DNA of 64,000 nucleotides from Cenococcum geophilum (GCA_050273025.1 CP158635.1:6572001-6636000); one strand, 5' to 3'; positions 1 through 58,400 are shown, counted from the stretch's first letter. The notes: a model not told the origin generated them from the sequence alone. Numbers and translations: made by a program.

Positions 1-424
1 GCGCCTAGTCTATATATAATTAAGAAGTTAAACTAAGATAGGATATCCGCCTAGCGTGCCTGCCGGGCCGTAAGGGCCTTAGTTATTATAAAGTATTTTA
101 GGGCCTTATAATCTAACACTACCTTAATAGGTTTAGGGGTCCCCTCTAGCTGTACACGCCAGTGCTAAAAGCTAGAGATAGTAGCCAGTATTTCTTTGTT
201 ATAGATATAGTAGTTTAGTTTAGCATCTATTATAGTCTTTAAATAGTATATAATAGGGTGCCATTCTCCATCCAGTTGCTTTTAGGAAAAAATACCGGCT
301 ATTGCGCCGTTTAAGGCATTAGTTTCTAGTATTAAGGGCCGTTCTGGGTTAAAGTGGGTAAGTAAGGGGGCTGACACTAGCCGTTTTTTAAGCTTATTAA
401 AGGCCTGTATATATATGGCGTTAA

Positions 425-510
425 GGCCGTCGAAATCGGACTCTGCACCTATATGTAGTGACGGCTACGAACCTAGGTCTTCGAAGTTCAGACTTAGAGC
501 CAACGCAGAG
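425..510 (+). ncRNA. HDV-like self-cleaving ribozyme fold (RIP-damaged)
   Basis: P1 GGCCGTC/GACGGCT with G1-U wobble; P2 CTCTGC/GCAGAG; P3 ACC/AGT (GGT in copy 2); 7-nt L3; P4 TAGGTCT/AGACTTA; J4/2 GCCAAC. Confidence 0.78.
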
Positions 511-1435
511 ACGTTGTACAGCGCGTTCTGGTGGGCCTGGTGGTGGTTATATACGTCGTGGGGCGTAGTAAAAAGTTTTTACATGGGATGGTGAGATCTC
601 GAAAACCACTATAGACGGTACCCCTTTATAATATAGCTATTACTATTCCCCTACTAAGCACCTATACGATCTAACATAGATGTATAGCATTTAATAGCAT
701 CTCCTAACCCCTAATAGAAAGTATTAATAACCTTTTATATTAACGAATAAGCGAATATAAACAAGTAATAAGTAAATATACGGCCCTTCCTAACCCCTAG
801 GGTGATCGCCCGCAGAGCATACGATCACTTACTATTAACTATTAAATACTACCTAGCAGCCTGGATAACACCGTGCGGTTTTCCTATCTCCTCTTAAGGA
901 GTGGTAACCCTTAGCGAGGGCCTAGCAACTAGGGCCTAGGTGTAAAAGATACCTAGGTATATATATATGTCCCGCTCGCCTTTTAGTATAGTAGTAGTTT
1001 ATAGATAAATCCCCCTTACGCCTTTAATAGGCCCTAGGGGGGGGAAGGCATGGCGTATATAGTAATGGTTAAACAAGAGATAGTATATAGGGGATGGCTA
1101 AGATATAGGAAATAACAGTATAGTAATTAATTGGCAAGGCCTAGCTGGGACGTAGTAAACCCTAGCTAGAATAAGCTAGAGAAGGAAGTAGTGGTTCCTA
1201 AGGAGTTCAAATATCTAAGGAGGACAGAATATAGCCGTAGGCTTATAGGGCCGCTGCTATGGACAAACATGGCAAACTGGGGTTTTTTATCCTACTAAGG
1301 TGGCTTATAGGGTTTTTCCTCCCCCAACTATAGGGTTTTTCTTCCTGTAAATTATAAGTTTTTCCCCTATAACGGAGTAGTCTACGTGGGCCGCGTAGGA
1401 TCCGTATTAGATGTTAAGTAATGAAATATTATTAT
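425..1435 (+). mobile_element. ~1.0-kb non-autonomous non-LTR retroelement (SINE/SIDE-like), copy 1, with 5' HDV-like ribozyme and (TAT)n tail
   Basis: 15-bp TSD TATATATGGCGTTAA at 410-424 and 1436-1450. It splits the Gypsy pol frame. It is the reverse complement of 4166-5184. Its 3' end (GGATCCGTATTAGATGTTAAGTAATGAA + TAT tail) matches the LINE 3' end at ~55233-55300. Confidence 0.88.
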
Positions 1436-4165
1436 TATATATGGCGTTAAAGTAGAAGGGCTAGTCTTTCCTAGTAAGGCGGTTAAGAGGCTAGGCGATT
1501 CTGCTATAGTTCTTAATAAAGTGTTAGTAGAAGCTACAGAAACCTAAAAATAATTATACCCCCTTTATAGTCCGTGGGGGCGTCTACTGGTTAATTGCGG
1601 CCGTTTTCTTTGGGTTGGCCTTAATTCTGTTTATGCTAATAATAAAACCTAAGTACTTTATATGCTTAATACTAAATTCTAACTTCTTAATATTGGCCTG
1701 GAGGCTAGCTTCGCGGAGCCGTTATAGGACTTTATAGACGTGCTCCTCGTATTCTAGTTTGTTCTCTAAGTATATTATAATATTATCTAGATAGGCCGTA
1801 TAGAAGTCGTTAAGGTAGTTAAAGAGTATATCGTTTAATTACCGCTAGTACGTAGCTGGTCCGTTAGTTAGTCTAAAAGGAAGTACCTTATATTTATACG
1901 TTCTGTAATAGGTCTAAAATATAGTAAAATCCTTAGACCTGGGGTTTATCCTAATTTGGTAAAAGGCCTGGCGGATATTAAGCTTAGTAAAAACCTTAGC
2001 TCTACTTATTTAGGTAAGAGTCTTATTAAGTAAGGGCAGCGGGTAGCAGTCCTTACGGGTTATATTATTTAGCTTATAGTAGTTAATGCAGAAGCGTAGT
2101 CCTCTATTTAGCTTTTTAATAAAGAGAATAGGTAAGTTAAAAGGGGCTTAGCTAGGCTTGATAAAGCCCTTATTTAGGTTATTAATAAGGTACTACTTTA
2201 TAGCCTATAATTTGGCAATAAACTATGGGTAGAGAGGGCTAAAGCTAAAGGTGCTTCCTTTGTCTTACTTAATCTTAATCTTATAGTCGTACGGTTAGTA
2301 GGGTAGAAGTATATTAGACGCTACCTTAGAGAATACGTCCTTAAATTTCCGGTATTAATTAGGTAGTTTTTATTCTACTAGTTCTTTATCTATAAGCCCG
2401 CTTTTTTATTTACTAAGCTTACTTTCTTTTTCCTTAATTATTTAGTTAATTTTGTATAGGCTAGTTGTAAAGGTAACGGTATTAGGCTGAACTAGGTTCT
2501 GGTAGAATCCTATAGCGCTAATATAGCAGATATTAACTAGTGGGAGGTCTGTAGGTTTCTTTAGCGTCCGTTAGGCCGTGGTTTGCGGTATAGGGTTTAT
2601 AGTCTTCCTTAGCTTACGTTCCATTTTCCGTAAGTTGTTCTTCCTATTTATTAGTTTAATATGGCGTCTAATGTCCCTAGCCTTTCTTTATAGCTGCGTA
2701 GGGCCTAGGTTCTTTATTAGGGACTTAGCTAGGCTACTACTAACTTCCTAAGTCTTTGGTGCGGGTGGTATAATATAGGTAGTTTAGGGGCGGCGTAATA
2801 TACGGATCTGTTACGGATTAAGCTGTATATCCTTCTTAAAAGCCTAGTCCCTACGCGTCGTATTGGCCTAGTAAACGGTGTCTATCTGCGGCCGTATAAG
2901 GTTTTCTATTGTAATACTAATCTCTTTTATAAAGGAAGGCGTTGGGGGTATAGTTTTGGGCTAGATAAGCTGCCTGTTCTATACGTTAAGCTATAAGCCT
3001 TAATAGGCTAGCTATTTTCTCCCTAAGATTATATTATGGCTTTTAAGGTCCGTAATAAGGAAGGGGACGTTATACTACCTTCGTCCGTTAACGCGGAGGT
3101 AGATCTGCAAGATAGTTATAATAGGTAGCCCTATCCGTCCGTTATAACCGCGAATAGGAATTAGTTTAGGTAGTTCTTTAAAGGGTGTATTTAAAAAGTC
3201 AGCTAGTTTTACAGCGCACTTTATATCAATTAAAGTAAAGGCATTTGCTCCTAAGTTAGCTAAAGCAAAGGTTAAAACTTAATATCTATTACGAAATAAA
3301 GTATAAGGGATAGTGCAGCTTTTTCTACTAACTAGCCGACCTAGATTAATATGTGACATATTAATCCCTTTTAACCCTAAAGAGGAGTCTTTCTCTAGGG
3401 TTCCTCTTTTTCCGGCTCTATACTATCCTCCTAAATTAACAGGACCTTATTTATCTTTGCCTTTATTAGGCAGTTCCTTATAGGGTAGCCTATTTAACCG
3501 CATAAGAAGTAAGCTCCTTAATTGCTAAGGGCCTATATATAGGGGTCGCTATATATAGGCTAGGTGTACACCGGGCCCATAGCAGGGGTAGCTATACGGC
3601 TAGCCGCTAGGTTAACTGTAGGGGTTGTCGATTATGCTAGGGCACTATAGGCCGTACTTATAGTACTTGCGGCCTAGTTTGTAAGGTTTTTAGTTTTTAG
3701 CCGATTAGCGCGTGCCTTAATTTAATAGAGGCCTTGGTTAATAGCTAGGCAATAGTCTATAAGTTTCTTTAACGTCTATGCCGTAGTATAAGCTAGTAAT
3801 ACGGCCCGCTATAGGTCTAGGGTAAGCTTATTAAAGAGGTTTGGCAGTAGGTCTTTCTAGGGGATTTAAGCCTATCTGGCTAGGTATAGAAAGTGGGTTT
3901 AAAAGGCTAAAAAGGTCTCCATTATTTTTATATTTAGGCTTTTATAGCTAAGGCGGGCGTTTTATACTTTAAAAGGGTCTTTATAAATAAAAGATAAGTA
4001 TTTAATTATTTCTTCTTTAGCGATAAAGGGGTCTGCTAAGTCTTTAGTATATCGCGGGCATAAATACGTTTAGGCGTCTTCGCTAGTACGGCCGAAAACA
4101 TAGGTCATTCTAGCTTAGGCGTTAGGGAAGTAGTCTATATTAACTTTAAGCTTATCCTATAATTA

Positions 4166-5184
4166 GTAGTAATAGTAGTAATTCTTAATTAACGTCTAAT
4201 ACGGATCCTATCTAGGCCTACGCAGACTACTCCGTTATAGGGGGAAAACTTATAATTTATAGGAAGAAAACCCTGCAGTTTAGGGGAGGAAAAACCCTAT
4301 AAGCCACCTCAGTAGGATAAAAAACCCCGGTTTGCTATGTCCGTCTATAGCGGCGGCCCTATAGGCCTACGGCTACGTCCTGTCCTCCTTAGATGTTTAA
4401 ACTCCTTAGGAACCACTACTTCCTTCTCTAGCTTATTCTAGCTAGGGTTTACTATGTCCTAGCTAGGCCTTGCCGTTTAATTACTATACACTTATAGTTG
4501 TGTTCTGTATTTTAACTACCCCCTATATACTATCTCTTGTTAACTATTACTATATACGCTATGCCTTTCCCCCCCTAAGGCCTATTAAAGGCGTAAGGGG
4601 GATTTATCTATAAACTACTACTATACTAAAAGGCGAGCGGGACGTGTATGCCTAAGTATCTTTTATGCCTAGGCCCTAGTTACTAGGCCCTCGCCAAGGG
4701 TTACTACTCCTTAAAAGAAGACAGGAAAACCGTACGGTATTGTCTAGGCTGCTAGGTAGTATTTAATAGTTAATAGTGAGTAACTGTATGCTCCGCGGGC
4801 GATCGCCCTAGGGGTTAGGAGGGGCCGTATATTTACTCGTTGCTCGTTTGTTCGCAATCGCTCGTTTATTAACGTAAGAGGTTGTTAATGCTCTCTACTG
4901 GGGGTTAGGGGATGTTATTGAATGCCGCGCATCTATGTTGGATCGTATAGGTGCCTTAATAGGAGAATAGTATTGCTGTTGTTCGTAAGGGGCACTTAGT
5001 AGTAGTTTTTAAGATCTTACCATCCTATGTAAAAACTTTTCACTACCGCCTATAATACCCACCACCACTACTAGGTTGTATCGCACGCTATATAACGTCT
5101 TTACGTTGGCTCTGAGTCTGAACTTTAAAGACTTAGGTTTGTAGCCGTCACCACGTATAGGTGCAGAGTCCGTTTTTGACGGCC
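4166..5184 (-). mobile_element. ~1.0-kb non-autonomous non-LTR retroelement (SINE/SIDE-like), copy 2, with 5' HDV-like ribozyme and (TAC/TAT)n tail
   Basis: 14-bp TSD TTATCCTATAATTA (4152-4165) / TTATCCCATAATTA (5185-5198), one RIP-type difference. Homologous over its length to 425-1435. Inserted in Gypsy gag. Confidence 0.88.
5099..5184 (-). ncRNA. HDV-like self-cleaving ribozyme fold (RIP-damaged)
   Basis: Minus strand: GGCCGTC-AAAAACGGA-CTCTGC-ACC-TATACGT-GGT-GACGGCT-AC-AAACC-TAAGTCT...AGACTCA-GA-GCCAAC-GTAAAG. P1 and P3 are intact; the 3' strand of P2 is mutated. Confidence 0.75.
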
Positions 5185-5754
5185 TTATCCCATAATTAAA
5201 GCTTCCAATTATTAAATATAGGGTTGGTTCCGTCTATAAGTAGCGGGGGATCCGCAACCTTTGCTGACCGCTTTAGTGCTATATAGGCCTTAGTGGGTCT
5301 ACTAAGGCGCTAGGATAGGGCCTAAAGGACTATAGTAAGTCTTTAGTTGTTTAATAATGACTTATTATTAGATATAGGGGTATCTCTAGCTTTAAGCAGC
5401 TCTCGCAGTCATTTAATTTCGGTATTAGCAGCCGCAAGCTTCGCCTAGGGGGTTAAAACGTTAATTGTTTCTTTATCTGAAGTATTTAAGGGTCCTATAG
5501 CTACTTTACCTACTGCTGTAGTTCGTGGTATAGTGGTAGGGGTGTTAGGTAATTTTAGGTAATTTCTTTAGGGGTTCTGGTCTGTATGTGTCTTATAGGT
5601 CCTTTCCTTAGGGTTCTATTCTTTTCTTTTAGGTCCTATCCTTATGGTCTTAGTAATGTCCTTAGGGTCCTATTCTGTGTTCTTATAAATATATTTAAGT
5701 TCCTTTTTAGGAAGAAAGAGTAGAGTAAGCTTTAGATAATATTAGCGACTCTAT

Positions 5755-5966
5755 TAATTAAGACATAAGTACGGCAAAAGGGTCGCGCAAGCCTGGACGA
5801 TTGGATTGTCTATAAACGAGAATCTAAAGCTAGGGAAAGGAAAGGAGAAGAAGAGTAGCGCCGTTCGATGTTTTATAAGATCTTCGCGTCATATAACCGC
5901 AATATACGGCAATCTGTGGCAACTTGCCGGTGCGTAGTTCTGCTAAGTTCTGCTAGTGCCGTAACA
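5755..5966 (-). repeat. 5' LTR of the left Gypsy element (left boundary approximate)
   Basis: TG terminus at 5966 on the minus strand, non-coding and upstream of gag. The partner LTR is outside the window. Confidence 0.55.
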
Positions 5967-6047
5967 TATATACTAGATATCCTTCCTTAATAATTCCCTT
6001 TACCTTTTAACCTAGTTAAGCAGCTCTAGGAGCTAAAGCCCTAAGGG

Positions 6048-13871: not shown

Positions 13872-16800
13872 TGTTAGTTATATAAGGGGATATTACGTAG
13901 CTACGGTTTGTAGATAGTATAATAATTATTCTATATTCTTTTTAAAGAAAGGGGTAAGGAACTTAAGGTTCCTCACCACGCTAGTGCCGCGGCGGCACGT
14001 AATGGCAACTTGCCGTACGTAACGGCAACTTGCTATATATAACGGCAATATACCTTATATGGTGATCATTTGCCGTTATTTCTAATACTAGCAACTTTTC
14101 TTTTAGGGTTGCTATCTATATATATATACCGCTTAACTAGCGGAATAAAAATTAATCCTCTTTACTTACTATTGCTATTATAATATAAGTCTCGCTATCC
14201 TAAAATTTGCCTCTTAATATGTGGTGCTTTCTTATTTATAAGTTATAGATAGGTATCTTGTTAGTAGGGCAGCTAAGGCGCTAGCAGTAAGTAAGCTAAT
14301 AGCGATTTTTTATCCTGGGGATAGAAAATCCTAATTAGCTAGTTTAAGTCAGGGTCTATAGAATCTAACTAATTAAACAACTTTAACCGCCGGTTAAAGT
14401 TCCTAGACATCTTAAGACCTTATATAACTAAGAAATTTCTTAGGACTCCCTTTTAACCCAACCTTTAACTTATATACGTAGAGTATTTATATTAATAAAC
14501 GTCTCTAGTGCCTTATTTAGGTTCGCCTTTATTATTATATCTACTAGGTTATCTTAGCTATTAATTTATTAAATCTTAAAGAGTTTTTAACACTCATAGG
14601 ATTACTAAAGTGCCATAATATTAATTATAAGGCGCTTCTCCTTTATAGTACTAAGCTTAACTAAATACTTATAGAGGGAAAATAAATTGGTGTATATAAT
14701 TATAGGGATAATAGAAAGTTCGAGTCAATCTATAATTATCTTTAGAGTAGTTCCAATTGTAATTGCTATATTAACTCCGCTAATTATTCCATATATCTCT
14801 AACACCAAAACACTTCGGGTAACGCGCTTGCTCTTAGTTAAACTCTAATAAATAAGATTGCCATAAATTATAAAGTCCTTCTCTCTAGTAAATTCGTTTG
14901 TAATAATAATCTTATATCCCAACTAGGAGCTAAAATCTTTATTATTTATAAATAATCTATTAACAAATATAAAGAGCTTAGTGGTAGGAAGATTAATAGG
15001 CACGTAGAGTAGTCCCCGATTAAGATAGTTTATTTACTAAAAAAGACGCTTATTTAGGGCAAGGACATTATCCTTAATTAGTTCCTAGTGTTAAGCCATA
15101 ATAGAGAGATTAAATAAAGCCTTAGGTTAATAGATAGAAGTAATATAAGCTCTATAAGTATATTACTCCATATATCCTTACTTTAGAGAATTAACGTTAA
15201 TAATATTAATCTTCTTACCTTAACCCTTCTGGCGTAAAGCAATAGAATCCTTATTTAGGGAGAGAATGCATCTATTAAAGAGTAATAGTGTTATTAAGTT
15301 AAGCTTTTCCTTTAGCTTTACTATAAAATTTACCTTTACTAGCTTATCCTCTTTAAGAGCTAAGAATTGGTCATCTCCTAAAATAATTATATTATTAATT
15401 TACATACTAACAATTCCAAATAGGGTTCCTATAGTTATAATAAGGAAGCAGGGATTAAATATAGAAGTAGTTATTAAAAGCTTCTCTTTATAGTGCTTGC
15501 TGTAGGTAGCCCACTAATAAGTTCCTACCTCTGTAATTCTATATAATGGCTTAAGCACAACCATAATTATATCTTTAGGATACTAGTAGCAAATTTGCTC
15601 CGGAAGGTATACTAATATTAAGCGCTAAAGGTGCGTCTCTAATTAGGTGTAGGCTTAAGTAATATCTTATAAATAAACTACTATTCTATTCTTTATTAAG
15701 GAGGGAGCTAATATAATAATAACTCGCTAACTAGCTCATTAAATCGTAGGAAATTATATAAGAATTATCTCTTTACTATTATTATTATAACCTTAGATAA
15801 TAAGCCTTAATTTCTTAAATGGGGCGTTAGTAGCTTTACCCTTAATCCCGTTAACCATTCTTAACTTAAAGATACAAACTCCATTAAACTTAGTAGGGTT
15901 ATATTTCTTAAATTTAAAGACTTCTTTTATGATAAGACTGTTAATCTCCTACTTATTAGATGCTTAGAAAGGAGCTCCTAAGGTTATAATATAACCTTCC
16001 TTTTGGAGCTATTTTGCGAGCTTAAAGTTAGCCTTCTCTTTGGCTGTTATAAAGGCCATTAATAACTTAACTTTATTCTTAATGGCGGCAACAAATTATT
16101 CTTTAAAATTAATAAGGTGTTAGCGATTTTATAATCCCTTTAGGCGACCTCTACCGCGTCATAGTTGTAGTATATCTACTATAATTATATTGGGATTATA
16201 GTCGCCTTTTAAAGTATATTAATTATAGTTCTCTTTTAAAGTATCTTCTAGGGCATCCTATAAAGGCTCGGAATTATTATCTTTATAGTAAGGCTTAATA
16301 ATAGTTAAACGGAATTAGGTGGGTCTATAAGGCATCTAAATAGTATAAGTTTAACTATTAATTATAATAAGTTAATATAGGCCTGACTATCCTCCCCTTT
16401 TACGCTATACGCGTACTTTAGACTAGAGTGGCAGATTAAGCGCAGTTAAAGTATTTAGGCCATTTCTTATTCCTAGTGCGTTATTAACCTAGTATATAGC
16501 ATAGAGGCGTTATACCTCCTTTATTACCTTGCGAATCACCTTAGCTTATTATACAACAGAGGAAGATAGTAGAGAATTATTGGTTATTTATAAGTAGGCG
16601 CTAAAGACTAGTGATATAGGTATAAGTCTATCTAGGCTAGCGAAATTATTAATAGCTTTAATAGCTATTTATAAGGTAAGTTCTTTACTAGCATCCTTTA
16701 GTTCTAAAGAGATAATCTTATATACGCGGTATAATAGCGCGTAATATCGCTCTACTTTTCCAATACTATTATATGCCTTAATAGGGACTTCCTTAACCTT

Positions 16801-19800
16801 AATTGCCATTACCTTTATTTATTATCGGAACTTTATAAATAAGAAGTTCTTTCCTATATTATAAACAATTTAATTAGGGGGTCCTAGGTAGATATTAATT
16901 TAGTATAACTAAAGGGTATCCTATGCGTTCCTAGCTAATATATCCTTTAAGAATTATACGGCTTAGAAGAAGGTTAAGAAGTTAATAACTTAGAGTACTA
17001 GCTTGCCGCTAAGATATATAACGTTAACAATAATACAGAAGTTAAAGTTATAGTTATTTTTAAGGGTGAACTTAAATCGGCCAGGGGACCTCTAGTTTAT
17101 TTAGTAGTAGTAGTAATATTTTATAAGATGCTTAATTGCCTTAACCTTAACTTTATAGCCTACTCGCTAAAGAACCCTAAGTAATTAGTAAACTAATAGG
17201 TAACTAAAATAACGGTGTAGTTAGCATAACTTTAACTTAGTTAAATGGCTCTAAGCAATACTCTTTTCTAGTTATTAAAGGAGTAGCTAAAGGTAACCCT
17301 ATTTACGTATAATAGGCACCCAATTATTTCCCTATACAAGTATATTCTTAAGGTTATTAAGCTTAACGCCTAGTTTATTTATATCTTTAATATAAAATAG
17401 AAATAGGGTGTTTATAGGAATAATATAAAAAGTAATATACCCTAAGGGGGTTTAAACCCTAATTATGCTAAAAGAGATTATAATACCTTTGCCAAAATAA
17501 ATTATATATTAGCCTACCGTTAAATAGTTAATCTAAATAGAGCTATTAAGCTGCTAAAGGGCTTGAACTTAAGGTTCTCCTACTATAGATACTCCTACGG
17601 CTCTAGTATCCGGTATAATACCATAGAAGACATTTGCTAAGTATCTATTATTAAAGGAAAACGCGGAGCTCTTCTTTAGCTTATTAAAGATATCTAACTT
17701 CGTAATAAAATAGAGCGTAGATTGGTTATTAAAAACAGCGACAGTTTATATACTATTTACCTCACTATACTTAGTAAAGTATTAATTAGGTAAGTAGTCC
17801 TCAATTTCTATATCTATAAGGAGCTATTTAGTCTTATTAACCTTACCCTTAAGGTCTTCTACGTCTTTATATTAAACCAGGAAGCTTTAGAAGTAGGCTA
17901 TAATAACCTTATAATTTTTAACGTTTCTTATACTCTAACGGAACTTATTATATACCTCTTTTCACTTATTAAAGGAGTATCTAGTTAACTAGCAATTTAG
18001 CTTCTTACAAACATAGCACTTTTTTTAGTAATTACTTTAAAATAAACCTCCACCGGGACCTCTACGGTTGCCTTATAGTCAACGTTAATTATACCCTCTT
18101 TTATATTCCCTACTACGGCCACTATATATTTAATTAGTCTAGTTATAATTATATTAGTTAGAAATACTTAGTTAGGTAGGGTTTTCGGTATAGAACTATT
18201 AAAATTCTTATATTTATATTATAGTACTTACGGCGGAGCGTAGCTTAGTATATACTCCTTTAAACGTATCTATAGGTTTATATAACGCCAAGTTATACTT
18301 AGGAATGCTATAGTATGCTAAGATAACCTAGTCCCTTAGGCTGTTCTTATTTTAGTAAGTTTTGGTAAGGCTATATTAGATTTTTTAGAGTTTATTAAAG
18401 AGTAGTTAAAGGCACTCTAAATAAGTCTTTATTAAGTTAGAAGCGATAACTCTTTAAAACGTAGTCTTCCGCTATTTAAATATATAAAGCTAGCAATTCT
18501 TATTAGTTTTAAAGTAGGCTTTAGTAAACTAAAGCATTATATTAAAGCTATAGTTTTTACCCGTAATATAGTCGTAATAGAATGTTACTGCCTATCCCTT
18601 TAATATAATAGAGAAAGCGTAGTAGTACTAATAGTATTAAATTCTAACCTTATTGCAATAGTTATAAAAGACCTATAGTCTTACTCTAAGCATATTATAT
18701 AGTTCTCCTTTAAACTTCTTCTCTTTATCTAAATATACCTTTATTAGATTCGTAACTTCTTATAATAAAGGCTTACTAGTTAGCTAGAGTAAAGGAGGTA
18801 AAGGCGGAGCAACTCTAAGTAGGAGAGCACCTCTAGGTAGGGGAGTAGCTTTAGGTAGGGGGTTAGCGTTCTAGGGGTTTTAATATAAATTAAAGTTACC
18901 TTCCAAAAAATATAGGTTGTTTTTAGGTTTCCGTAGTTAACGTATAATCTTAGCTTCTGTTTATATTAGTTTATCTATACTAGTAATAACGGCCTAAATA
19001 TTACTAGTAATTAGGTTACTATTCTTAGTAATATATACCCTATTCCTATAGAGGAAGTCTTAAAAATCCTAAACAATATTAACGTTGCTGAGTACCTAGG
19101 TATTAGCAGTCCATCCCATAAAATTCTCCCTAAAATACTCCTATAGTTATAAGTCGGCGTAGTATCTATTTTAATAAAATGTAATATAGTGTAGGAGAAA
19201 GCCGTTAACTTATTTTATAGTATAAGTTATTATATTAAAGGCAAATTCGTTCTAGTCTTTATTAATAAGTTTCGCGTACTTAGCTACCCCTAGTAATAAG
19301 GAGTCTTTCTAGTTATTTAAAGTAGGCGTAGCCATGTTTTCGGAGGGAGGGAAGTATTATTAGTATAGGGATTGTTGTTTGGTACGCGTTCGTGATATAT
19401 ATTTATTATTTAGTACGCGTTTATGACATATATTTGCGATTATAGGGCTTAGGACTAGTTCTAGCCTTAAATTATAAAGACTTATAAAGTATATTATTCT
19501 GCGTAATAAACGCAAGAATTTATAATCTTAGAAAGGCTTAGGACCAGTTCTAGCCTTTAGATCCTTAGATTCGTAGAAGAGTTTTATTTAAGATTTAGGA
19601 CTAGTTCTAACCTTAAAATATAGCTTCCTCTAGCACGAGTAGCACTAGTATAGTAGCTTGTCTCTTCTTAATAAAATACCTTACTATTCTATAGTATAAC
19701 AGTAAAGTTAACCACTAATTAGTATTAGTTATATAAGGGGATATCACGTAGCTATAGTTTGTAGATAGTATAATAATTGTTCTATATTCTTCTTAAAAAA

Positions 19801-19938
19801 AGGGGTAAGGAACCTAAGGTTCCTCACCACGCTAGTGCCGCGGCGGCATATAATGGCAACTTGCCGTACATAACGGCAACTTACTATACGTGACGGCAAT
19901 ATACCTTATATAGTGATCATTTGCCTTTATTCCCAATA
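13872..19938 (-). mobile_element. Full-length RIP-degenerate Ty1/Copia LTR retrotransposon, copy A
   Basis: 216-bp direct LTRs 13872-14087 and 19723-19938; 5-bp TSD GCCTT (13867-13871, 19939-19943); Copia RT motif DIT*AYT*LET (from DITQAYTQS) at ~15635-15670; integrase region precedes RT. Confidence 0.92.
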
Positions 19939-22849: not shown

Positions 22850-23200
22850 CGTAAGGCATTAGTTCCTATAGGGAAGAGGAAAACGTAGCTATGGGCTCCT
22901 ATAGGGGACTAAAGGCTATACAGGAATGCAAACCGTAGGGGATTAGTTCCCATAGGGCGGTGAAATACGTAGGCATTAGCACCCGCAGGGGATTTATTAG
23001 CGTAGGGGATTTATTAGTATAGGGGATTTGTTAGAGTAGGGGACTAGCTCCTATAGGGGATTTGTTAGCGTAGGGGATTTATTAAAGTAGGGGACTAGTT
23101 CCTATAGGGCGGCGAAATACGTAGGCATTAGCTCCTGTAGGGGATTTGTTTAAATAGGGGACTTATTTAAGTAGAGGATTGGTTAAAGTAAGGGATTAAT
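22850..23200. repeat. Degenerate ~18-bp tandem repeat (GTAGGGGATTT(G/A)TTAG core)
   Basis: Many imperfect units seen directly; period a multiple of 3 suggests a Pro-rich coding repeat on the minus strand. Confidence 0.65.
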
Positions 23201-23210
23201 TCTCCTATGG

Positions 23211-26200
23211 TGTAATAGAGCCTTATAGTAGGAACTACAGTGGACTCGTTAATGGGCTAGGTATATAGGTATTATAAGTAAGTCAACAACGTAATAATAA
23301 CTGGTAGAGTGGTTGCCTAATAGATTAACTTTAATTGTATTCTAAGAATTACTATAAGGAAGAAACTATCTAGGTAGGGACTAAGGGTCCTTAAATATAC
23401 AATTATACTCCTAAGAAAGTCGTTACTCTATCTACTCTACTTACTCTATTCGCTTTATTATAGATCTCGTAGATTATATAGATTATATAGATTATATTAC
23501 GTGACTTTGCTTACTATTCCTCGTTATATAGTTTTATAGGTTCTATCCTAGACCGTACTTATATTAACTAACTAGCTTCTTCTAACTCCTCTCTAAGTAG
23601 TTATAATATTGTACTTAAAGCGTTTATAACACTATCTCCCTCCTCTTTATCTTTATTCTTAAAGATATCTAGTATTTTTAAGTTGTTTACTAGAGGTATA
23701 ATATCCGTCTAATTAATTTAGTTAATATTATTACTTATAATACCTAAAGCACCTTCTTCTTCTTTAACTCTTTATTATACGCGTATAGTCTCTTTTATAC
23801 TATTACTTAGTAAAGTAATATTATCTTTGTATTCTTATTACGTAAAAGAGGGGTTAGTTTATATTATATTAGCAAGTCCTTTATCTTAATAGCCCTCTTT
23901 TTATATAGAGTATACTAAAGCAAACGTTTGGTTATCCTATAATATTTGCTTAATTTTTAACACTAAGTATACGCGTTTTATAACTCTTAATAGTCTCTAG
24001 GTTCCCTAAGTAATTTATTATAAAGTTTTATATTTAATCTACTGCTATAAAGCTTAATAGTAAGCTGTCCTTAGCGCTGCTTATAGTTTAATATACCTTA
24101 GAAGAGTCCGTATATATCCTTAAAGCTTAGCGTCTAGCTTATACTTATCTTTAGCGTTTAGAATATGTCCATAAGAAGGTCCGTTTAAAAAAGTAAAAAC
24201 TTATTTAATAAGGTTTATAGGAACTTAGTAATAAAAGAATAGATTCTCTTTTAATAGAGAAGGAAATAACTCTAAGTAGTTCGGCAGTTGCTCTTCCTAA
24301 ATCCCCCTTAGGTAACTTATTCTTTAGCAATTCTTCTTTATTAATATTATCTAACCTTTTCTCTTCTAATACTCCTATACCTTTCTTATAGCGTTCTTTA
24401 GGTTCTCTAATAGCTTTTAGGTAGTCTTATTATAGCCTATCTACTTTACTTTATACTATATTTTATTATCTATATCCTTATAACTAACAATCTTTAAAAC
24501 TTGCTATTTATTTTCCTTTTATCCTCTATATATATCTGCTTTATAAACTAGTGACTTAACATTCCTATATACTGGCTTTAGTATTGCGATATGCTATATA
24601 GGGTAGATCTTTATCCTAGCTAGTAGGTTTAACTTAAATATAACCGGTAAAATTTTTTATATAATTTTAAAAGGTCCTAGTCTAACATAGTCTAACTTCT
24701 TACTTAGTTGTTAACTTTTAAAAATTTTATATAGTAGCTATACTTTATTTCCCTCCTTAAGATCTAGTCCCTTAGATCTCTTAATATTGTAGTACTTTTT
24801 TATCCTTTACTATACTACCTTAGCTGTTTCTATAAGGTCTGTATAAAGATTTATTAAACTCTTTATTCTTTATTTAGCTATGCTATTTATCTTCTTTACT
24901 TAATGTGGCGATAATAAGGTCTTTAGCTTATATCCATAATTCGCCTTAAATAGTAACGTACCTATTCCTTCTTATAGTATTATATTATATATAAACTATA
25001 TAACTAGTAATAGCGATACCTAATTATTCTACGCATAATTAATATAATGCCTTAGATATTGTTCTAGTATCTAATTTAATCTTTCTATTTAACTATCTGT
25101 CTATAAATAATATGCGGTAGAAGTTGCTACTTAAACTTCTTACTCTGCTAAGAATACTTCCTAGAATATTGTTATAAATCTTAAATCTCTATCTAATATA
25201 ATTTTGCTTAGTGCTCTATATCTTATAAATACTTCTTTAATATAGATTTTAGTAATATCTTCCGCTAATATTTCTTCTAAATATGCTATAAAGTACCCCT
25301 ACTTTATAAGCTTGTCTATTATTACTAAGATTATATTATAATCTTATCCAGTAATAGGGTCTTTTAACTTTAGTAGCTTAATAATAAAGTCCTATAATAT
25401 AACCTCCTATAGTCTCTCTAGTATTTTAATAGGTTATAGCTCTCTATATAGTTTATACCTTATTAGTTTATTCCTTTAGTAATCTAGATATTCTTTTATA
25501 ACTTACTTAGCTAGTCCTTAGATTCCCTTAATAATATACTCCTCTTAAAGTCTTAATACTAAGCCTATAGCTCCGTTATATCCTTAAGTTAATCCCTTAT
25601 AAAATAACTTAATAAACTCCTTTATAATAGACCTTAGTACGTATATTACTTTTTAATTTTTATACTACTTTAAGTCTAGATCTTCTATTTATATATCTAG
25701 GATCTTTTATATCTAATTACTTTCTAGTAATTTATAGGTTTTCTCTTCTTATGTTACTATAATCTTTAGATAATTATACTTAATTAATCTATCTATATCC
25801 TTTTATAATAAAGCCCCTAATAGCTTTTTATTGTTCTATAGTTTAACTTTTCTACTTAGAGCGTCTACTTATGTATTCTCTATACCCTTAGTATACTAAA
25901 TTTTAAACTAGTATTCTATAAGCATTTCCGTCTATCTAACTTATCTATAATTAAGTTCTTTTATTATTAGGAACCCTATTAGGTTCTTATAATCCGTTTT
26001 AACTATAAATAGTTTTTCTATACCTTATAAGAATAATTTCTATTTTTTTAGTACTATAACTATACCTAATAACTCCTTATTGTAGATGTTATAGTTTAGT
26101 TCCGGTAGTGTTATCTTCTAACTATAGTATACTACTAGGTGCCATCTATCTTTATATTTCTATAGAAAGTATACTCCTAGTATATAGTCTAATATATCTA

Positions 26201-29200: not shown

Positions 29201-31216
29201 TCTGCTTACTTAATTATCTTTAAATATTACTTCTTCCGTCTTATAAAGTAATAGATGCCGTATTTAATAGTGTTATAATACCCATTATTAAACCTTACTC
29301 TATAGCGGTCCTAGTCTCTACTTCTATTATATTATTAAGGTTTAAATACCCCTAATTAGTTCCTTTACTATCCTTATTGCTATTAATTAATAAGTACTCT
29401 AACTCTATTATTATTATTACTAATTATTATCCGTATATTATTATAATATCTTAATCTAGCTTATAGAGTTAATCTTATTCTTTATCTAACTCTTTAGTTC
29501 CTTTAAGTCCTTTTAACTCTAGCTTTTATAGCTAATAGCTTATACTATACTTAGCGTCTTTATAAATTCGGCATATATTATTATAATAAAACGCAAAACT
29601 TTTAATTAAACATTCTTTTATTTCTTATAATATACTATTGTCCCTTTATACGTATATATTACATACTACTAGTTTAGTTCCCTTTACTGCGTAATAACTC
29701 TAACTACTTTTATAGTTTTTAGTAAAATAACCCTATTTTCTATAATTTATATAAGCTCCGTTTTTAAACTATTACTTTTATTATAGAGTCCGCTTAAATA
29801 TCTTCTACTATTAAAATCCTTAGTTTAGCCTATACTCCTTAGTCCTATAATTACTTAATCCTTAACCTTTAGGTTTTTATAGTTTCTTACTCCATCTCTT
29901 ATAGGTTTCTTTAGTACTACTTAGGTCTATTAGCTCTACGCTATACTATAGTTTCTAACTTAGCTTTAGTTATTGCGTACTCTATGTTTTATATAACTAT
30001 AGAACTCTATCCTAGCCTCTCTTAGCCTATTCTCTTTAGAAGATCCTATTATTAATCTTAATTACTTAATCTATTAATTCCCTTAGGGTATCTACATCTT
30101 CCATTAAAATAATTACGTCCTAGACTTTAGCCTTAAGTCCCTATTTATACTATACTATAAGCGCCTTATTGTTTTATTTAACCTATATAGCAAGTGTTTA
30201 AAACTGTGTTATATACTTAATTGCTAAAGTTTGCTATATTAGGTTCTAAAGCTTTCTCTTTACTATAGTTATTGCTTCCGGGTCCCTAAATATTTATATT
30301 AATTATTTCACAAATCCTACCTAGCTAGAAAACACAAATCGTACCTCTTAATTAGTAGTAGTTATTCTATTAGTCTATATTTCCGTTAAATAGGGTTTAA
30401 ACTATTTAAGTGCCTATCCTATTAGGAATAGTTCTATGTAGGCTATCTAATCTATTAATATAGCTAACTTAGCCCCTTTTTATATAACCTTAAAATGCAT
30501 TTATATTAGGAATCCTTTAAGCTTTAATCTCTCCCCTAAGAATCGTTTAATTAAAGGTAACTTAACCTTCGCTGCTCTAATCCCATTAAGTCTTTCTTTA
30601 AGTATTTAGTTGTTCTTATTTAACCTATTAATAATTTCCTATAACTGCCTAACCGTAACTAGTTGTAAGTTAGTATCTTATATACTTATATCTTTACTTA
30701 ACCTTAAAATAGTTGCTGCCGTTAATGGCGTCATAGTGGCTGCTTTTGGTGGCATATTATTTAACTTATTAAAACCATAACTATGGTAGTAATTATATAA
30801 CAGAGCCTTATAGTAGGAACTATAGTGGACTTATTAATAGGCTAGGTATATAGGTATTATAAATAAGTTAACAACGTAATAATAACTAGTAGAGTAGTTA
30901 CCCAACAGATTAACTCTAATTGTATTCTAAGAATTACTATAAGGAAGGAACTATCTAGGTAGGGACTAAGGGTCCTTAAATACACAACCGTACTCCTAAG
31001 AAAGTCGTTACTCTATCTACTCTGCCTACTCTATTCACTCTATTATAGATCTCGCAGATTATATAGATTACACAGATTATATCACGTAACTCTACTTACT
31101 ATTCCTCGTTATATAGTTCCACGGGTTCTATCTTAGACCGTGCTTGTATTAACCAACTAGCTTCTTCCAACTCCTCTCTAAGTAGTCGTAACATTGTACT
31201 TAAAGCGTTCGTAATA
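23211..31216 (-). mobile_element. Full-length RIP-degenerate Ty3/Gypsy (chromovirus-type) LTR retrotransposon
   Basis: 421-bp direct LTRs 23211-23631 and 30796-31216; TSD TATGG/TACGG; gag start MPPKAA at 30755; protease ALVDSRA (~27590-27612); RT YLNNIIIY (~26622-26645); integrase; chromodomain-like GYNKTT*KLLENLKNA (~24390-24440). Confidence 0.92.
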
Positions 31217-33063
31217 TACGGCCTCTATTTAGGCGGTATAAGGCAGCTTCTAATAGGCTAGCGAGTAAATTACGTGTTTTGTGGAAAAATAAAGCCTATA
31301 TAGGATGGTAGGGTATAGGGACCTAATAATTTAGCGGAAGATTAGGTTATCCGCTTTCCTAGGTTTATTTAGCCTACCCTACGCTATTTTATATGCGTTT
31401 TAACCAAGGCTATTACCTAGCCTTAGCCGCCCAAATCTTTAGTTGTGCTGTAGAAGAGTATAAGATAATAAAATATTATTTTATCTACTCTGTCAACACC
31501 TTTAAATCCTTCTATACTTACTAGAGTATCTTCTTTATCCTAAAATATAGCTCTAGATTATCCTTCTCCTACCTTTTACTATTTAGAAATACTACTTTTC
31601 GGAGCCTATTAACCTAGGGGACTAATAACTAATAGTACGGCGTAAAGTACTCCTCCGCTATTTTAATAAAATCACCTTTATAAGCTACCTCTCCTTTTTT
31701 TAACTTAGCTAGCTCTTTAGTGTCTATATAATTCTACTTCTCAAACCTTAGAATAGGCTTGCGCTCCTTATTTAGACCCTTGTAATAAATATACATCTAG
31801 AAAAGCACTTAGAAGAACGACTCTAAATTATGCCTAAAGGAGTGTTTCTTGCCTAGAAGCACTCCTATAGCTATAAAAGCTCTTATGCTAGTCTTACCCT
31901 ATGCTCCTAAAGGTCCTTCTCGCTTCTCTTTAATCGCGAGATTAAGATTAATTAAGAATAACTTCTAGGAGGGATTATCGTCTTCCTCGTTTATTAAGAG
32001 GTTGCCTATTAAAATATCACGTTAGAGGATGCCAGCCTACGTATATAAAGACTTATATCCTTTAATGCCACCCTCTAGTGCAGCAAGCATTGCAGCTAGA
32101 GAGCTTGCCTTATAAAGAGCCTTTCTATAGTCGTAAGTAATAACGCGTTAATACACCCAATTCTATATAATAGGGCGCTTAATTAGAGAGCTTAAACACG
32201 GGCGCTTATTGGGCGGTAACAGGGCGTTAGTATAGCTAGACGACCTCTTTTTACTAGTGCTTTAGCCTTTCTTTACACTACCTTGTACTCTAGCTACGCT
32301 TAGAGGTACCATTAAGCTTTTAGGCTTATAGTTTATCGCTTTAGTAATATTTAGCCCCTTATAGATATTAAAGATGTTATTATCTTGTCCACCTATATAA
32401 ATAGTCCTATAGTGATAGTACCTGGCTACGTTAATTACTCCTTTCTCTACTACCTTATGTAGCAGTTCGCCTTCTTCCTTACGCTTTGGGTACTACTACA
32501 AGTCTTTAATAACAAGAAGTATCTTAGAGGTATTACCCTTACAGTGCGCTTTCTAGTAAGTTGTCGCCTAACCGGTAATATAGGGTGCCCGCTTTATAAG
32601 TTTATTAAGGATAAGACGCTCGGTCTAATTGTTGCGCACGACCTTAATATATTGTTTGCCGTCTAATATTAAAATAGTTAAGTTAAACCTAAGCTGCTCT
32701 TTATTTATTAAGAGAAACCCTAATATTACTAAGGTAAATTATAGTCCGTCTTTATTAATATCAAATAGTGATAATATAATGCCTCCTACCCGGTTATATT
32801 CCTATAGCCGCATAATAGATCTATAGAGGGTAAAACCTAGGACAAAGCGACGATTGTCCTAAGCGGCGAAGACTTCCCTTATATATTTCCCTAAAGCAAA
32901 CTATGCCTATAAGGCTATATTAGTATTTAGATTACTCTTTAGCTCTCCTAGCATAAGTATATATAACTAATAGCATTGAAAGCTTTCGCTAGCTATTAGA
33001 TTATCTACAAAACTAATATCTAGCTTTCGCTTCGCCGTAGACCCTTATAAGGGCTGCTTAGTA

Positions 33064-57600: not shown

Positions 57601-57964
57601 GCCACGTAATAGTTTCTTTAGCTAGGACGTAATTCTATCTACCTACTAGGTATACTAAGGGTTAGAGCCTAGCTAAGGGGTAAGGTCCTTAGAGCTAGCA
57701 GTAGCTACTACGCACTACGCCCCACAAGAGGTTCCCGTTTTACGTTACCTATAAGAGTTTCCTTATAATAGGCCGACCGTATTTTATAAGAGAGGGGCCG
57801 TAGAGACACTAAGTCCCGCACTAGATAACCTACTTCCCTCTCTCCTACTAACTAAGCTTATATCCCCCCCTTTTATAAGCTAGCCTATATCTCTAACTAT
57901 TAAGACCTTATCCAACTGGCCTGTGTTTCCCCTATAGCCTCCCCTATATATATATATTAAGTTA

Positions 57965-58400
57965 TATACACTACGCCTATTAAGACCCTTCTATGAGTCG
58001 CCTTATATATATGCGCATTAGGTTGCGTACACCACGCCTATTAAGACCCTCCTATGAGTTACCTATAAGTCGACTAAGTTGTACGCCATAGGGCCGTCGA
58101 AGCTAGCCTGTGTTTCCGCTACCTAGAGCTTTACCCGTATTTCCACCTCGTTAAGCCATCTAGTCGCCGTCACATCGCTATTGTGTTACTATTGCGTCGC
58201 TGTCGTCCAGGTCGCGCGCACTATGCCTATTAAGACCCTCTTTTAAGTCACCTAGGTGTACTAGATACTAGATAGGCCCTTATAGAGGGGCCTTAATAAG
58301 TTCTCTAGGTAGGGCCTTAATAAGTTCTTTGCGGTGGCCTTAGGGCCTTAATAAGTTTTATATAAAGTATCTGCGACGCGTTAACCTTAATAAGTTCTTA
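57965..58400 (-). repeat. Short dispersed repeats in the LINE 5'/ORF1 region
   Basis: (C/T)GCCTATTAAGACCCT occurs three times (~57975, 58035, 58225) and CCTTAATAAGTT four times (~58281-58396); on the minus strand they read like peptide repeats (EGLNRR, ELIKA). Confidence 0.65.

Follow-up and report, generated by a model that had tools for sequence, protein, structure and literature searches.

Several autonomous non-LTR retrotransposons, i.e., R2, RTE, Baggins and L1Tc, begin with an HDV-like ribozyme that cuts the RNA of the element out of a co-transcript and sets its 5' end, many of them being devoid of a promoter of their own; the cases treated in the text of the corresponding review are metazoan and trypanosome ones only (PMC6765202). 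Among short elements, the R2 SIDEs and the R2/R1 hybrid SIDEs of Drosophila are described as non-autonomous non-LTR elements that combine a 5' HDV-like ribozyme with the 3' end of a longer element, and that move by target-primed reverse transcription with proteins provided in trans, the R1-type hybrids making 14-bp duplications (Eickbush & Eickbush 2012, PMC3414825). In trypanosomatids, the elements NARTc, RIME and SIDER share with a LINE their first ~77–96 nt (Pr77/L1TcRz), which correspond to an HDV-like ribozyme, and NARTc cleaves at +1 in vitro (PMC3185411, PMC4035085). Finally, in filamentous ascomycetes, Li & Breaker 2017 report 11 canonical HDV ribozymes and, across 26 species, 230 variants, with cleavage demonstrated for two; these ribozymes are said to have "widely variable gene associations", and neither "transposon" nor "retrotransposon" is used in the main text (PMC5640933).

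Here, we describe ribozyme-headed insertions in a stretch of 64,000 nucleotides of Cenococcum geophilum (GCA_050273025.1, CP158635.1:6572001-6636000; hereafter the window). Two copies of a ~1-kb non-coding retroposon are found near its start: copy 1 (425–1435, plus strand, 1011 bp, with RIP-like decay) and copy 2 (4166–5184, minus strand, 1019 bp). Copy 1 is flanked by a perfect 15-bp target-site duplication, TATATATGGCGTTAA (410–424 on the 5' side, 1436–1450 on the 3' side), and ends with GTTAAGTAATGAA followed by a (TAT)n tail (1413–1435), which places it in a subfamily with a GYAATGAA(TAT)n 3' end. Copy 2 ends with a (TAC)n/(TAT)n tail, and its 14-bp duplication, TAATTAT[G/A]GGATAA, differs by one transition between the 5' side (5185–5198, TAATTATGGGATAA) and the 3' side (4152–4165, TAATTATAGGATAA). 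The two copies share 83% identity over 1032 columns with blastn, or 90% mean column identity with MAFFT, and their differences are mostly transitions. The host site of copy 1 is the decayed pol gene of an LTR retrotransposon, in which an open reading frame (285–464, minus strand) matches RT_RNaseH_2 at 2.8e-9. Moreover, the corresponding empty site is present in DNA contigs of two runs (X1 and X5), where the joint 409->1436 omits 1026 bases, 15 (X1) or 12 (X5) letters fitting both sides. Since 21 (X1) and 22 (X5) contigs pass from 424 directly into the 3' flank, the 5' edge of copy 1 can be placed exactly at 425. The two copies reported in the initial annotation, each with its own 14–15-bp duplication and TAT/TAC tail and each starting at the first base (G1) of an HDV fold, are thus real insertions, and that observation is confirmed as a whole.

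A pattern scan of metagenome contigs returned at least 121 further copies of the family. Upstream sequence is available for 120 of the listed copies; in all of them, the similarity begins at the same G of GGCCGTC, and their flanks bear no relation to one another. This first position is a G in 113 and an A in five of 119 distinct rows. Completeness was judged on the 52 listed copies with at least 1150 nt after G1: 48 of them reach the 3' motif, with a length of 936–1031 bp (median 1009), while the remaining four are interrupted by nested insertions of unrelated repeats. A duplication of 10–16 bp (mode 14–15) flanks 43 of these 48 whole copies, with tails of the TAC type (32), the TAT type (8) or another type (3). 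Hence, the fixed ~1-kb length and the 5' ends set at G1 that had been foreseen from two copies hold among the copies listed. The duplications of variable sequence, the simple-repeat tail and the lack of terminal repeats, along with the recovered empty site, identify a non-LTR retroposon made by target-primed reverse transcription. The substitution spectrum is RIP-like: 579 of 1253 C>T changes precede an A, and 642 of 1464 G>A changes follow a T.

The first base of both window copies is the G of GGCCGTC, and this heptamer can be modelled as the P1 helix of an HDV-like fold. In copy 1 (425–510, plus strand; 119.7 bits with the covariance model), the predicted elements are P1 (425–431/460–466, with G425·T466), J1/2 (432–440), P2 (441–446/505–510), P3 (447–449/457–459, broken by A457), L3 (450–456), P1.1 (451–452/467–468, broken by A451), P4 (473–480/490–497) and J4/2 (498–504, AGCCAAC). 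In copy 2 (5099–5184, minus strand, with G1 at 5184; 114.4 bits), P2, P4 and P1.1 have one mismatch each. The two copies are damaged partly in different helices, as first noticed, and neither passes a descriptor that demands perfect pairing. At the family level, the fold is a nested double pseudoknot starting at G1, with a 7-bp P1 closed by a G1·U wobble, P2, a 3-bp P3, a 2-bp P1.1 (positions 2–3 of L3 plus the two nucleotides after P1), a P4 hairpin and a C-bearing J4/2; P1.1 consists of a G-C and a U-A pair, not of two G-C pairs. Standard pairs fill 97.4% of 3010 pair cells (27–45% when partners are slid by 1–3 columns), although columns 28–49 of the alignment (A2), because they were fixed by the search pattern, are uninformative. 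At the cleavage site, 113 of the 119 distinct rows of listed copies have a G·U pair and five an A-U pair. The perfect descriptor matches exactly at G1 in 66 of 120 listed copies, with two other matches in 117 kb, compared to 1.23 matches per 128 kb in the shuffled window, i.e., a chance of ~1e-5 per site. Among listed copies, P4 spans 15–30 nt in 64 distinct sequences, folds as a single hairpin of at least 6 bp in 112 of 120 and exchanges G-C for A-U pairs (columns 60/78: GC 64, AU 29, GU 19); covariation within the family is confined to this helix.

Sense-strand RNA of the family is abundant. In a stranded run, the sense depth over 432–607 is 1269–3075, versus 15–57 for the antisense strand, and the flanks are at zero. 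The reads repair both damaged positions of copy 1 (451 A>G in 1331 of 1338, 457 A>G in 1335 of 1338), along with 454 T>C (1306 of 1338). Transcripts retain the ribozyme region and carry the intact L3/P3 letters in at least 97% of reads. TGTACGT, proposed beforehand as the RIP-reverted L3, is the actual reading in most other copies and in the RNA, and both P1.1 and P3 can form, as seen in intact copies. Regarding RNA ends, 502 molecules stop at 437 in one run (adjacent depth 1271; mean depth over 388–431, 17), which could reflect missing terminal bases or clipping during alignment and does not count as positive evidence for G1.

The window also contains a second ribozyme-headed retroposon, E2 (55233–58818, minus strand, 3586 bp, with RIP-like decay), flanked by a perfect 15-bp duplication, TATATATACCTACTA (55218–55232 on the 3' side, 58819–58833 on the 5' side). 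E2 begins at the G1 of an HDV-like fold (58734–58818; descriptor match at 58818 on the minus strand; 22.4 bits and E 1.3e-4 with the covariance model) that is more canonical than that of the 1-kb family. It is made of P1 (58818–58812/58784–58778, with G58818·T58778), J1/2 (AAGCCCTA), P2 (58803–58798/58739–58734), P3 (58797–58795/58787–58785), L3 (TCCACGT), P1.1 (C58793-G58776 and C58792-G58777), P4 (58771–58761/58756–58746, one mismatch) and J4/2 (GGCTAA, with C58743), all the listed pairs having been verified as standard. In the 1-kb family, J4/2 (AGCCAAC) also has a C at the analogous place, with one extra nucleotide before P2, and C500 of copy 1 is, by analogy with the 3.6-kb element, the candidate catalytic cytosine. 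The C-N-R-A rule for this cytosine reportedly goes back to Webb et al. 2009.

Common to E2 and the 1-kb family are the 5' ~150 nt, a 3' module of ~270 nt, the tail type and the duplication length, while the middle ~600 nt of the short elements have no match in E2. The 3' homology lies in two conserved blocks, and blastn aligns ~733–799 of the short element with 55441–55477 of the window. Within the 3' module, a conserved box is common to copy 1 (1188–1205, plus strand, GTAGTGGTTCCTAAGGAG) and E2 (55442–55469, minus strand). A 3'-terminal hairpin follows: its outer stem is GTCTG/CAGAC in intact 1-kb copies, GTCTA/TAGAT, hence still paired, in copy 1 (1380–1412, plus strand), and GTCCG/CGGAC in E2 (55256–55289, minus strand), which is compensatory with respect to the 1-kb family. 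Hairpin columns 68/95 pair as U-A in 53 of 55 sequences (RNAalifold) and as C-G in the other two, which are the copies of the 3.6-kb family. At the 5' end, adding E2 to an alignment of 14 copies of the short family reveals two-sided changes at 14 of the 20 pairs of P1, P3, P1.1 and P4 (a number not attained in any of 500 shuffles; 0–2 in slid controls), a covariation that mostly depends on one E2 sequence and on an alignment fitted to the P1/P3/P4 of the model. Because E2 has the same build and its 3' module is homologous, the 1-kb family looks like a short, SIDE-like derivative of this longer lineage. Searches of E2 returned no Pfam domain (stops read as X), no RT/EN domain and no stop-poor or otherwise preferred frame. 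E2 may thus be an autonomous partner in a decayed state, or else a longer relative that is itself non-autonomous.

In our view, the insertions are likely to represent a family of ribozyme-headed, ~1.0-kb non-coding non-LTR retroposons of the fungus. The modelled nested double pseudoknot, together with the G·U pair at the cleavage site, places the fold in the HDV-like structural class, and self-cleavage would occur just 5' of G1. Because the 1-kb element always begins at what would be an HDV-type cut site, it probably trims the start of its own RNA. Alternatively, the fixed 5' end could correspond to a transcription start at G1 driven by an internal promoter, as with Pr77 in L1Tc, the fold then being non-catalytic or having another role, such as protein binding, 5'-end protection or translation-like functions. 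We regard this as improbable, albeit worth weighing: cleavage is a prediction from the fold, P1.1 with its one G-C and one U-A pair is weak, J4/2 exceeds that of E2 by one nucleotide, a single 77-nt stretch of L1Tc acts as both promoter and ribozyme (PMC3383444, PMC3185411), and some trypanosomatid elements with an adequate HDV-like fold, well-folded SIDER ribozymes among them, are described as inactive in vitro (PMC4035085). Rfam likewise has no match to the element at E<=10, HDV-type or other, in window 1–6000 or in 12 intact loci. The HDV-type families of Rfam include HDV_ribozyme, CPEB3, drz-Agam and HDV-F-prausnitzii. Their models are sequence-narrow and devoid of pseudoknots, so that the miss counts against membership in those families and not against the structural class. 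Against a promoter stands the full descriptor at the exact first base, which has a low chance frequency (~1e-5 per site). The fold also recurs independently at the first base of a diverged second family, with compensatory changes in every helix, and no nested double pseudoknot would be maintained at a bare start site.

As to coding capacity, the 1-kb family is non-autonomous. Pfam searches of the open frames from the loci, many of which overlap intact copies, returned neither an RT nor any other domain in the 1-kb element, in line with the absence of an RT motif noticed at the outset; the frame varies between copies, its length does not exceed that of the reverse strand, and no frame or start codon is conserved. 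Domain searches for a LINE reverse transcriptase/endonuclease in the window and the fetched loci were also negative. The Tad1-like LINE that the initial annotation proposed to act in trans is thereby neither supported nor contradicted.

Classical fungal SINEs, which also include Mg-SINE and Foxy, are typically well under 1 kb and have Pol III heads. Like the 1-kb family, they are short, non-coding and flanked by target-site duplications, and they are presumed to be mobilised by LINEs; those described are tRNA- or 5S-related (e.g., AfuSINE, PMC5063351). Given these precedents, as well as the SINE-like duplications and simple-repeat tail, the family might be an ordinary Pol III SINE with an unrecognised tRNA-, 5S- or 7SL-derived head. 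This is very unlikely, as ARAGORN finds no tRNA-like gene in window 1–6000 and 10 intact loci, 12 intact loci give no Rfam match to tRNA, 5S or 7SL at E<=10, ~1 kb is long for a Pol III unit, and the HDV-like fold fully accounts for the first 86 nt. The lack of a tRNA-like head suspected initially is therefore borne out, and the term SINE in its strict sense does not apply, no Pol III-derived head having been found with either program. A further reading, in which the 1-kb units would be solo LTRs, remnants of DNA transposons or the outcome of random deletions in a longer element, is scarcely credible, even though their 5' ~150 nt and 3' ~270 nt resemble the 3.6-kb element, since 48 of 52 listed copies share one ~1-kb structure and the four exceptions are nested insertions, the duplications are of 10–16 bp and not 4–6 bp, the tail is (TAC)n, a search for terminal repeats in the element found none, and the middle ~600 nt are unmatched in E2.

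Compared to the SIDEs, which are site-specific to the rDNA, cut from a 28S co-transcript and rare, and whose autonomous parents are identified (PMC3414825), the fungal family is abundant, strongly transcribed and scattered over TA-rich sites; its coding parent was not found in the window or the fetched loci, and its middle ~600 nt are unrelated to the longer relative. The likeness to R2 SIDEs drawn in the initial annotation is nonetheless apt, for the ends are common to a longer ribozyme-headed element in the same window. Dispersal, abundance and non-autonomy are shared with NARTc, RIME and SIDER (PMC3185411, PMC4035085), but in the trypanosomatid elements, as described there, the 77 nt double as a proven internal promoter, L1Tc and ingi are the partner LINEs, and the ends are of the poly(A) type, whereas the fungal family has a (TAC)n tail and unrelated ribozyme sequences. 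R2, RTE, Baggins and L1Tc encode RT/EN (PMC6765202), while neither fungal family shows detectable coding capacity. With respect to fungal ribozymes, the variants of Li & Breaker typically show a C-G cleavage-site pair, a loop E that replaces part of P4 and, between P2 and P3, one additional nucleotide that is mostly C (PMC5640933). The present folds differ in having G·U at the site and a plain P4 hairpin (112 of 120 listed copies), a distinction drawn from the published description of the variants; the extra nucleotide is ambiguous here, because the G opening the 3' strand of P2 is a possible partner for the C that precedes P3. The idea that no such fungal family had been described may hold for the ribozyme-headed retroposon, but not for HDV-type ribozymes as such, which were already known in fungi (PMC5640933). 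Consequently, the novelty is narrower than first thought, while the core of the original interpretation (fixed G1, ~1-kb length, P1.1 and P3 able to form, neither an LTR nor a recognisable Pol III SINE, SIDE analogy) is upheld.

Altogether, the life cycle of these ribozyme-headed retroposons may be pictured as follows. Sense-strand transcription, observed for the family, could stem from read-through or from an internal promoter, both being possible. The first 86 nt, which fold in silico, would cut the RNA just 5' of G1 and shed its upstream part. The 3' module (conserved box, terminal hairpin and (TAC)n tail) would then be recognised by the RT/endonuclease of a LINE, and target-primed reverse transcription at TA-rich sites would run to the very 5' end of the RNA; new copies would therefore start at G1 and be flanked by duplications of mostly 14–15 bp, before undergoing the RIP-like CpA>TpA decay seen in both window copies. 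The 1-kb family, in which a ribozyme fold occupies the start where classical fungal SINEs have a Pol III head, looks like a new representative of the SIDE/NARTc kind in a fungus.

Both copies of the ~1-kb non-coding retroposon placed in the window by the initial annotation were confirmed at their positions (copy 1, 425–1435, plus strand; copy 2, 4166–5184, minus strand), each with its own target-site duplication and a tail of the TAT or TAC type. A perfect 15-bp duplication (TATATATGGCGTTAA, 410–424 and 1436–1450) brackets copy 1, which ends in (TAT)n; for copy 2, whose tail is (TAC)n/(TAT)n, the duplication measures 14 bp and its two sides (5185–5198 and 4152–4165) differ by one transition. 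The two copies are 83% identical according to blastn and 90% identical over MAFFT columns, their differences being mostly transitions. Copy 1 interrupts a decayed LTR-retrotransposon pol gene (285–464, minus strand, matches RT_RNaseH_2 at 2.8e-9), of which other copies lack the insertion. Moreover, position 409 is joined to position 1436 in DNA contigs of two sequencing runs (ambiguous letters: 15 in X1, 12 in X5), and contigs pass from position 424 straight to the 3′ flank (21 in X1, 22 in X5). Because these host-repeat copies and contigs are devoid of the insertion, the boundaries of copy 1 are independently supported.

To sample the family more broadly, a 22-nt degenerate motif of the ribozyme core was searched for in metagenome contigs, which yielded at least 121 loci, of which 80 carry flanks of 1.6 kb. 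The initial annotation had proposed to look for a 5′ end fixed at G1 (the first base of both the element and its HDV-like fold, the predicted cleavage site lying just 5′ of it) and for a fixed length of ~1 kb, and both were found. Among the matches listed, similarity starts at GGCCGTC in 120/120 copies with upstream sequence and the flanks upstream of G1 are mutually unrelated in all 120, a count that leaves out L045, a locus cut by the contig end, and that applies to copies reaching at least position 20, the search motif sitting downstream of it. Regarding length, 52 copies continue for 1150 nt or more past G1; 48 of them are whole, with the conserved 3′ motif no more than 1100 nt away, and measure 936–1031 bp (median 1009), the remaining four being broken by repeats without mutual relation (among the matches listed). 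Duplications of 10–16 bp (15 bp in 17, 14 bp in 13) flank 43 of these 48 whole copies, with tails of the TAC (32), TAT (8) or another (3) type, again among the matches listed. Five loci in which homology ends early (L030, L056, L076, L053 and L116) were considered as longer elements with the same head, and this was rejected: their downstream parts are mutually unrelated, which identifies them as nested insertions. No longer common body was found after the head of the 1-kb family in the 121 sampled copies (among the matches listed). Summed depths suggest hundreds of copies or more, depth sums not being copy numbers.

When compared to the column majority, the copies show mainly transitions, biased towards CpA>TpA (C>T before A: 579/1253; G>A after T: 642/1464; CpA being only about one quarter of CpN). 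Such a spectrum is of the type that RIP generates. The host looks fungal, judging by this RIP-like bias, by matches to Pkinase_fungal in the window and to DUF3716 in the locus frames, and by sequencing runs labelled “fungus metagenome”. As for the insertion sites, half or more of the 120 aligned copies have an A at base −1 (column 6 of the alignment of ribozyme-region copies), and a TATA-like stretch is where the duplications usually begin, which suggests that the endonuclease involved prefers TA-rich targets. Two further arrangements were observed: a 1-kb element nested within a copy of the 3.6-kb family described below (L016, 1642–3222), and a second copy in opposite orientation, represented by its 3′ end, ~350 nt away from the first one (L014, 2936–3045).

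In the fold modelled for the 1-kb family, P1 (GGCCGTC/GACGGCT) begins at G1, which forms a G·U wobble, and is followed by a J1/2 of 9–10 nt (with one additional A in 4 of the 120 copies, among the matches listed), P2 (CTCTGC/GCAGAG), P3 (ACC/GGT), an L3 loop (TGTACGT) whose positions 2–3 (GT) form P1.1 with the AC just after P1, and a P4 hairpin preceding J4/2 (AGCCAAC). Pairs were counted on 120 sequences (118 loci and the two window copies), without L012 and L116, in which the ribozyme is deleted or truncated, and without L045. Among the matches listed, standard pairs occupy 97.4% of the 3010 pair cells, versus 27–45% when partners are slid by 1–3 columns. Because the copies are closely related and columns 28–49 are set by the search motif, covariation within the family is confined to P4, the part expected to vary in the HDV-like class. 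There, columns 60/78 are GC in 64 sequences, AU in 29, GU in 19 and other in 7, columns 58/82 are GC in 31, AU in 9, GU in 11 and other in 20, and the P4 segments (64 distinct ones, 15–30 nt) form a single hairpin of at least 6 bp in 112/120 copies (all among the matches listed).

A strict descriptor of our own making (all pairs standard, at most one bulge in P4) matches exactly at G1 in 66/120 copies and elsewhere twice in 117 kb (among the matches listed), while shuffled windows yield 1.23 matches per 128 kb, which puts the probability of meeting a fold of this kind by chance at a given base at ~1e-5. In copies failing the descriptor, the defects are mostly transitions; a standard first P1.1 pair (G34–C51 in intact copies), for instance, is lacking in 29 of 119 distinct rows among the matches listed. 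Both window copies fail the descriptor, each in different helices, as the initial annotation had read them. Two other descriptor matches in the window, at 13487 (minus) and 23815 (plus), were rejected as being at the level of the chance rate, the former being G/T-rich and dependent on wobble pairs. Rfam returned no HDV-type match at E ≤ 10, either in window positions 1–6000 or among 12 intact loci, which speaks for non-membership of those narrow families and was not counted against the structural class.

The family appears to be non-coding: in its least decayed copies, the open frames differ in frame from copy to copy, have no common start, are equally long on the reverse strand and give no Pfam match. 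Likewise, ARAGORN detected 0 tRNA-like genes in window positions 1–6000 and in 10 intact loci, in line with the initial annotation, which had recognised no tRNA-like head.

The family's 3′-terminal ~90 nt match the window at 55233–55321 (minus), and a covariance model built from the family alignment (P1, P3 and P4 only) and run without filters over the whole window gave a third match at 58721–58824 (minus; 22.4 bits, E = 1.3e-4), with base 58818 flagged by this model and, separately, by the descriptor. A 15-base sequence (TATATATACCTACTA) recurs exactly upstream of this base (58819–58833) and past the tail (55218–55232), hence 55233–58818 (minus) is a single 3586-bp insertion starting at G1, hereafter E2. 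Its predicted fold is more canonical than that of the 1-kb family, with P1 (GCCCGCG/CGCGGGT, G1·U), P2 (CTGCAC/GTGCAG), P3 (GCG/CGC), an L3 loop (TCCACGT) forming a CC/GG P1.1, a P4 of 10 bp with one mismatch and J4/2 (GGCTAA); all these pairs were verified, those of P2 outside the covariance-model alignment.

E2 and the 1-kb family have a ~28-nt box in common, as well as the type of tail and the length of the duplication. The terminal hairpin is common to both, too, one of its pairs having changed in a compensatory manner (U-A in 53 sequences, C-G in the two E2 copies). Their first ~150 nt are also common, i.e., the ribozyme plus a CGTCGCA..GCG..CTGGTG stretch. The 3′ end of one 1-kb subfamily, including copy 1, is 85–88% identical to that of E2, compared to 75–83% for most others listed. 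When E2 and 14 family members are aligned with the model, both partners are changed in 14/20 pairs of P1, P3, P1.1 and P4, a value reached by 0/500 shuffles and to be compared with 0–2 in slid controls, in an alignment that favours the model helices and in which most changes are carried by one E2 sequence. A conserved HDV-like fold stands at the 5′ end of both diverged families. Further partial copies of E2 were found at three loci (L016, L051 and L019). E2 itself is RTE-sized and heavily decayed in a RIP-like manner (TpA/ApT 1.3–3.1); it may once have been autonomous and be dead now, or it may be a long element of the non-autonomous type.

No RT or APE domain was detected by Pfam in 167 stop-to-stop frames of the window and 47 frames of the loci, the only matches being an LTR-type RNase H fragment, a Tc1/mariner transposase, kinases and a methyltransferase, plus DUF3716, a fungal family, in the locus frames. 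No LINE was thus found in these sequences, whether Tad1-like, as the initial annotation had proposed for the partner, or other. E2 and the partial copy at L016, translated in three frames with X at stops, matched 0 Pfam families at E ≤ 1, and E2 contains no stop-poor frame. Elsewhere in the window, two ~6-kb units (13874–19938 and 48381–54394) are bounded by ~200-bp direct repeats (13874–14087/19725–19938, 92%; 48381–48582/54193–54394, 88%) and are homologous to one another internally at 86% (14117–14416 with 48597–48896, 18825–19124 with 53302–53601); they are probably decayed copies of one LTR-retrotransposon family, their frames showing no Pfam domain. The transposase is a 410-aa open frame (33190–34419, minus; DDE_3, HTH_Tnp_Tc3_2 and other HTH) that looks undecayed amid RIP-like DNA. 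A 794-aa frame with a protein kinase domain (59104–61485, plus; Pkinase 2.7e-30) lies ~270 bp past the upstream duplication of E2 (58819–58833), on the opposite strand, where GC rises up to 0.47–0.49, and a 76-aa fragment matches Pkinase_fungal (32265–32492, minus). Finally, a short tandem array (22851–23198, 68–84-nt spacing) and a neighbouring ~1.2-kb segment repeated 2–3 times in 13 kb at 69–90% identity (23213–24470, 30798–31216, 35622–36901) lie where the window is richest in AT and strongly GC-skewed.

Expression was examined in one stranded RNA run with the same species label, of which ~12% provided 10045 placed reads. Depth over 432–607 is 1269–3075 on one strand versus 15–57 on the other, with zero in the flanks, and beyond 607 it is 117–2375 versus 12–90; given the usual library chemistry, the family transcripts are sense. 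They retain the ribozyme region with intact letters (G451 in 1331/1338, C454 in 1306/1338, G457 in 1335/1338), G451 accounting for ~71% of the summed depth in X1 DNA contigs. The family is also present in a metatranscriptome assembly (602 pieces). In run X21, 502 fragment or molecule ends pile up sharply at 437, 12 nt within the ribozyme and away from G1. Mean RNA depth over 388–431 is 17, and 9509/10045 reads align only partly to the decayed copy 1; the share of ends at 437 (~40%) is similar, by eye and uncounted, to that of copies in which A replaces T at the equivalent of 436. Clipping at this subfamily difference is thus a plausible explanation of the pile-up, which could also reflect terminal-base loss while the library was made, or else a genuine secondary end.

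Altogether, the insertion anatomy is typical of target-primed reverse transcription, of elements that are transcribed in the sense direction, have a 3′ module in common and have later undergone RIP-like decay. The HDV-like fold would cut RNA 5′ of G1, and any transcript that runs into the element would then yield an RNA whose 5′ end is defined; the reverse transcriptase of a LINE would recognise the 3′ hairpin together with the (TAC)n tail, and cDNA synthesis would proceed to the RNA's 5′ end. The main rival explanation, transcription starting at G1 with a non-catalytic fold, would equally place the 5′ end at this base, but it must account for a full double pseudoknot, with compensatory changes, opening two families. 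One may tentatively envision a fungal non-LTR lineage in which HDV-like ribozymes replace promoter-defined 5′ ends. In it, the 3.6-kb element would be the founder, autonomous, of RTE size and now decayed, and the 1-kb family would be an extremely successful parasite of it that has no promoter and gains the ability to transpose from whatever read-through transcription occurs in repeat-rich DNA; the catalogued “orphan” ascomycete HDV ribozymes would be heads of such elements. As a whole, we regard this joint reading as rather doubtful; if it were true, hundreds of ascomycete HDV ribozymes with “widely variable gene associations” would be retroposon heads.

Retroposons with a ribozyme cap are well documented in trypanosomatids and in metazoans, among them insects with R2 and its SIDEs (PMC3414825, PMC3185411, PMC4035085, PMC6765202), HDV-like ribozymes being used by metazoan LINEs as well as by non-autonomous SINEs (PMC6765202). 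The closest known systems are the R2 SIDEs and R2/R1 hybrid SIDEs (PMC3414825) and NARTc/RIME/SIDER with L1TcRz (PMC3185411, PMC4035085). In fungi, 230 variants of the HDV class from 26 species, plus 11 canonical ones, have been reported, two of which were assayed (PMC5640933); the main text of that report mentions “widely variable gene associations” and no transposons, and its section on these ribozymes assigns them no biological role. Its variant features a C-G cleavage-site pair and a loop E, whereas the folds of both the 1-kb family and E2 are without these two traits. A search confined to the literature found no description of a fungal retroposon with an HDV-like ribozyme head. Hence, the link between fungal HDV ribozymes and retroposons, as read here from sequences, seems not to have been made in the literature examined, and a second, longer family in the same window comes in addition.

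The locus joins fungal HDV-like ribozymes to an abundant, transcribed retroposon family and its longer relative. The sampled DNA copies start at the predicted cleavage site, and the locus suggests a concrete, testable function for these ribozymes. The different P4 lengths and the two P1.1 types offer natural variants for ribozyme biochemistry. For the annotation of repeat-rich fungal genomes, the family may make up a sizeable share of the sequence, and it represents a type of non-autonomous fungal element that annotation keyed to Pol III heads would presumably overlook.
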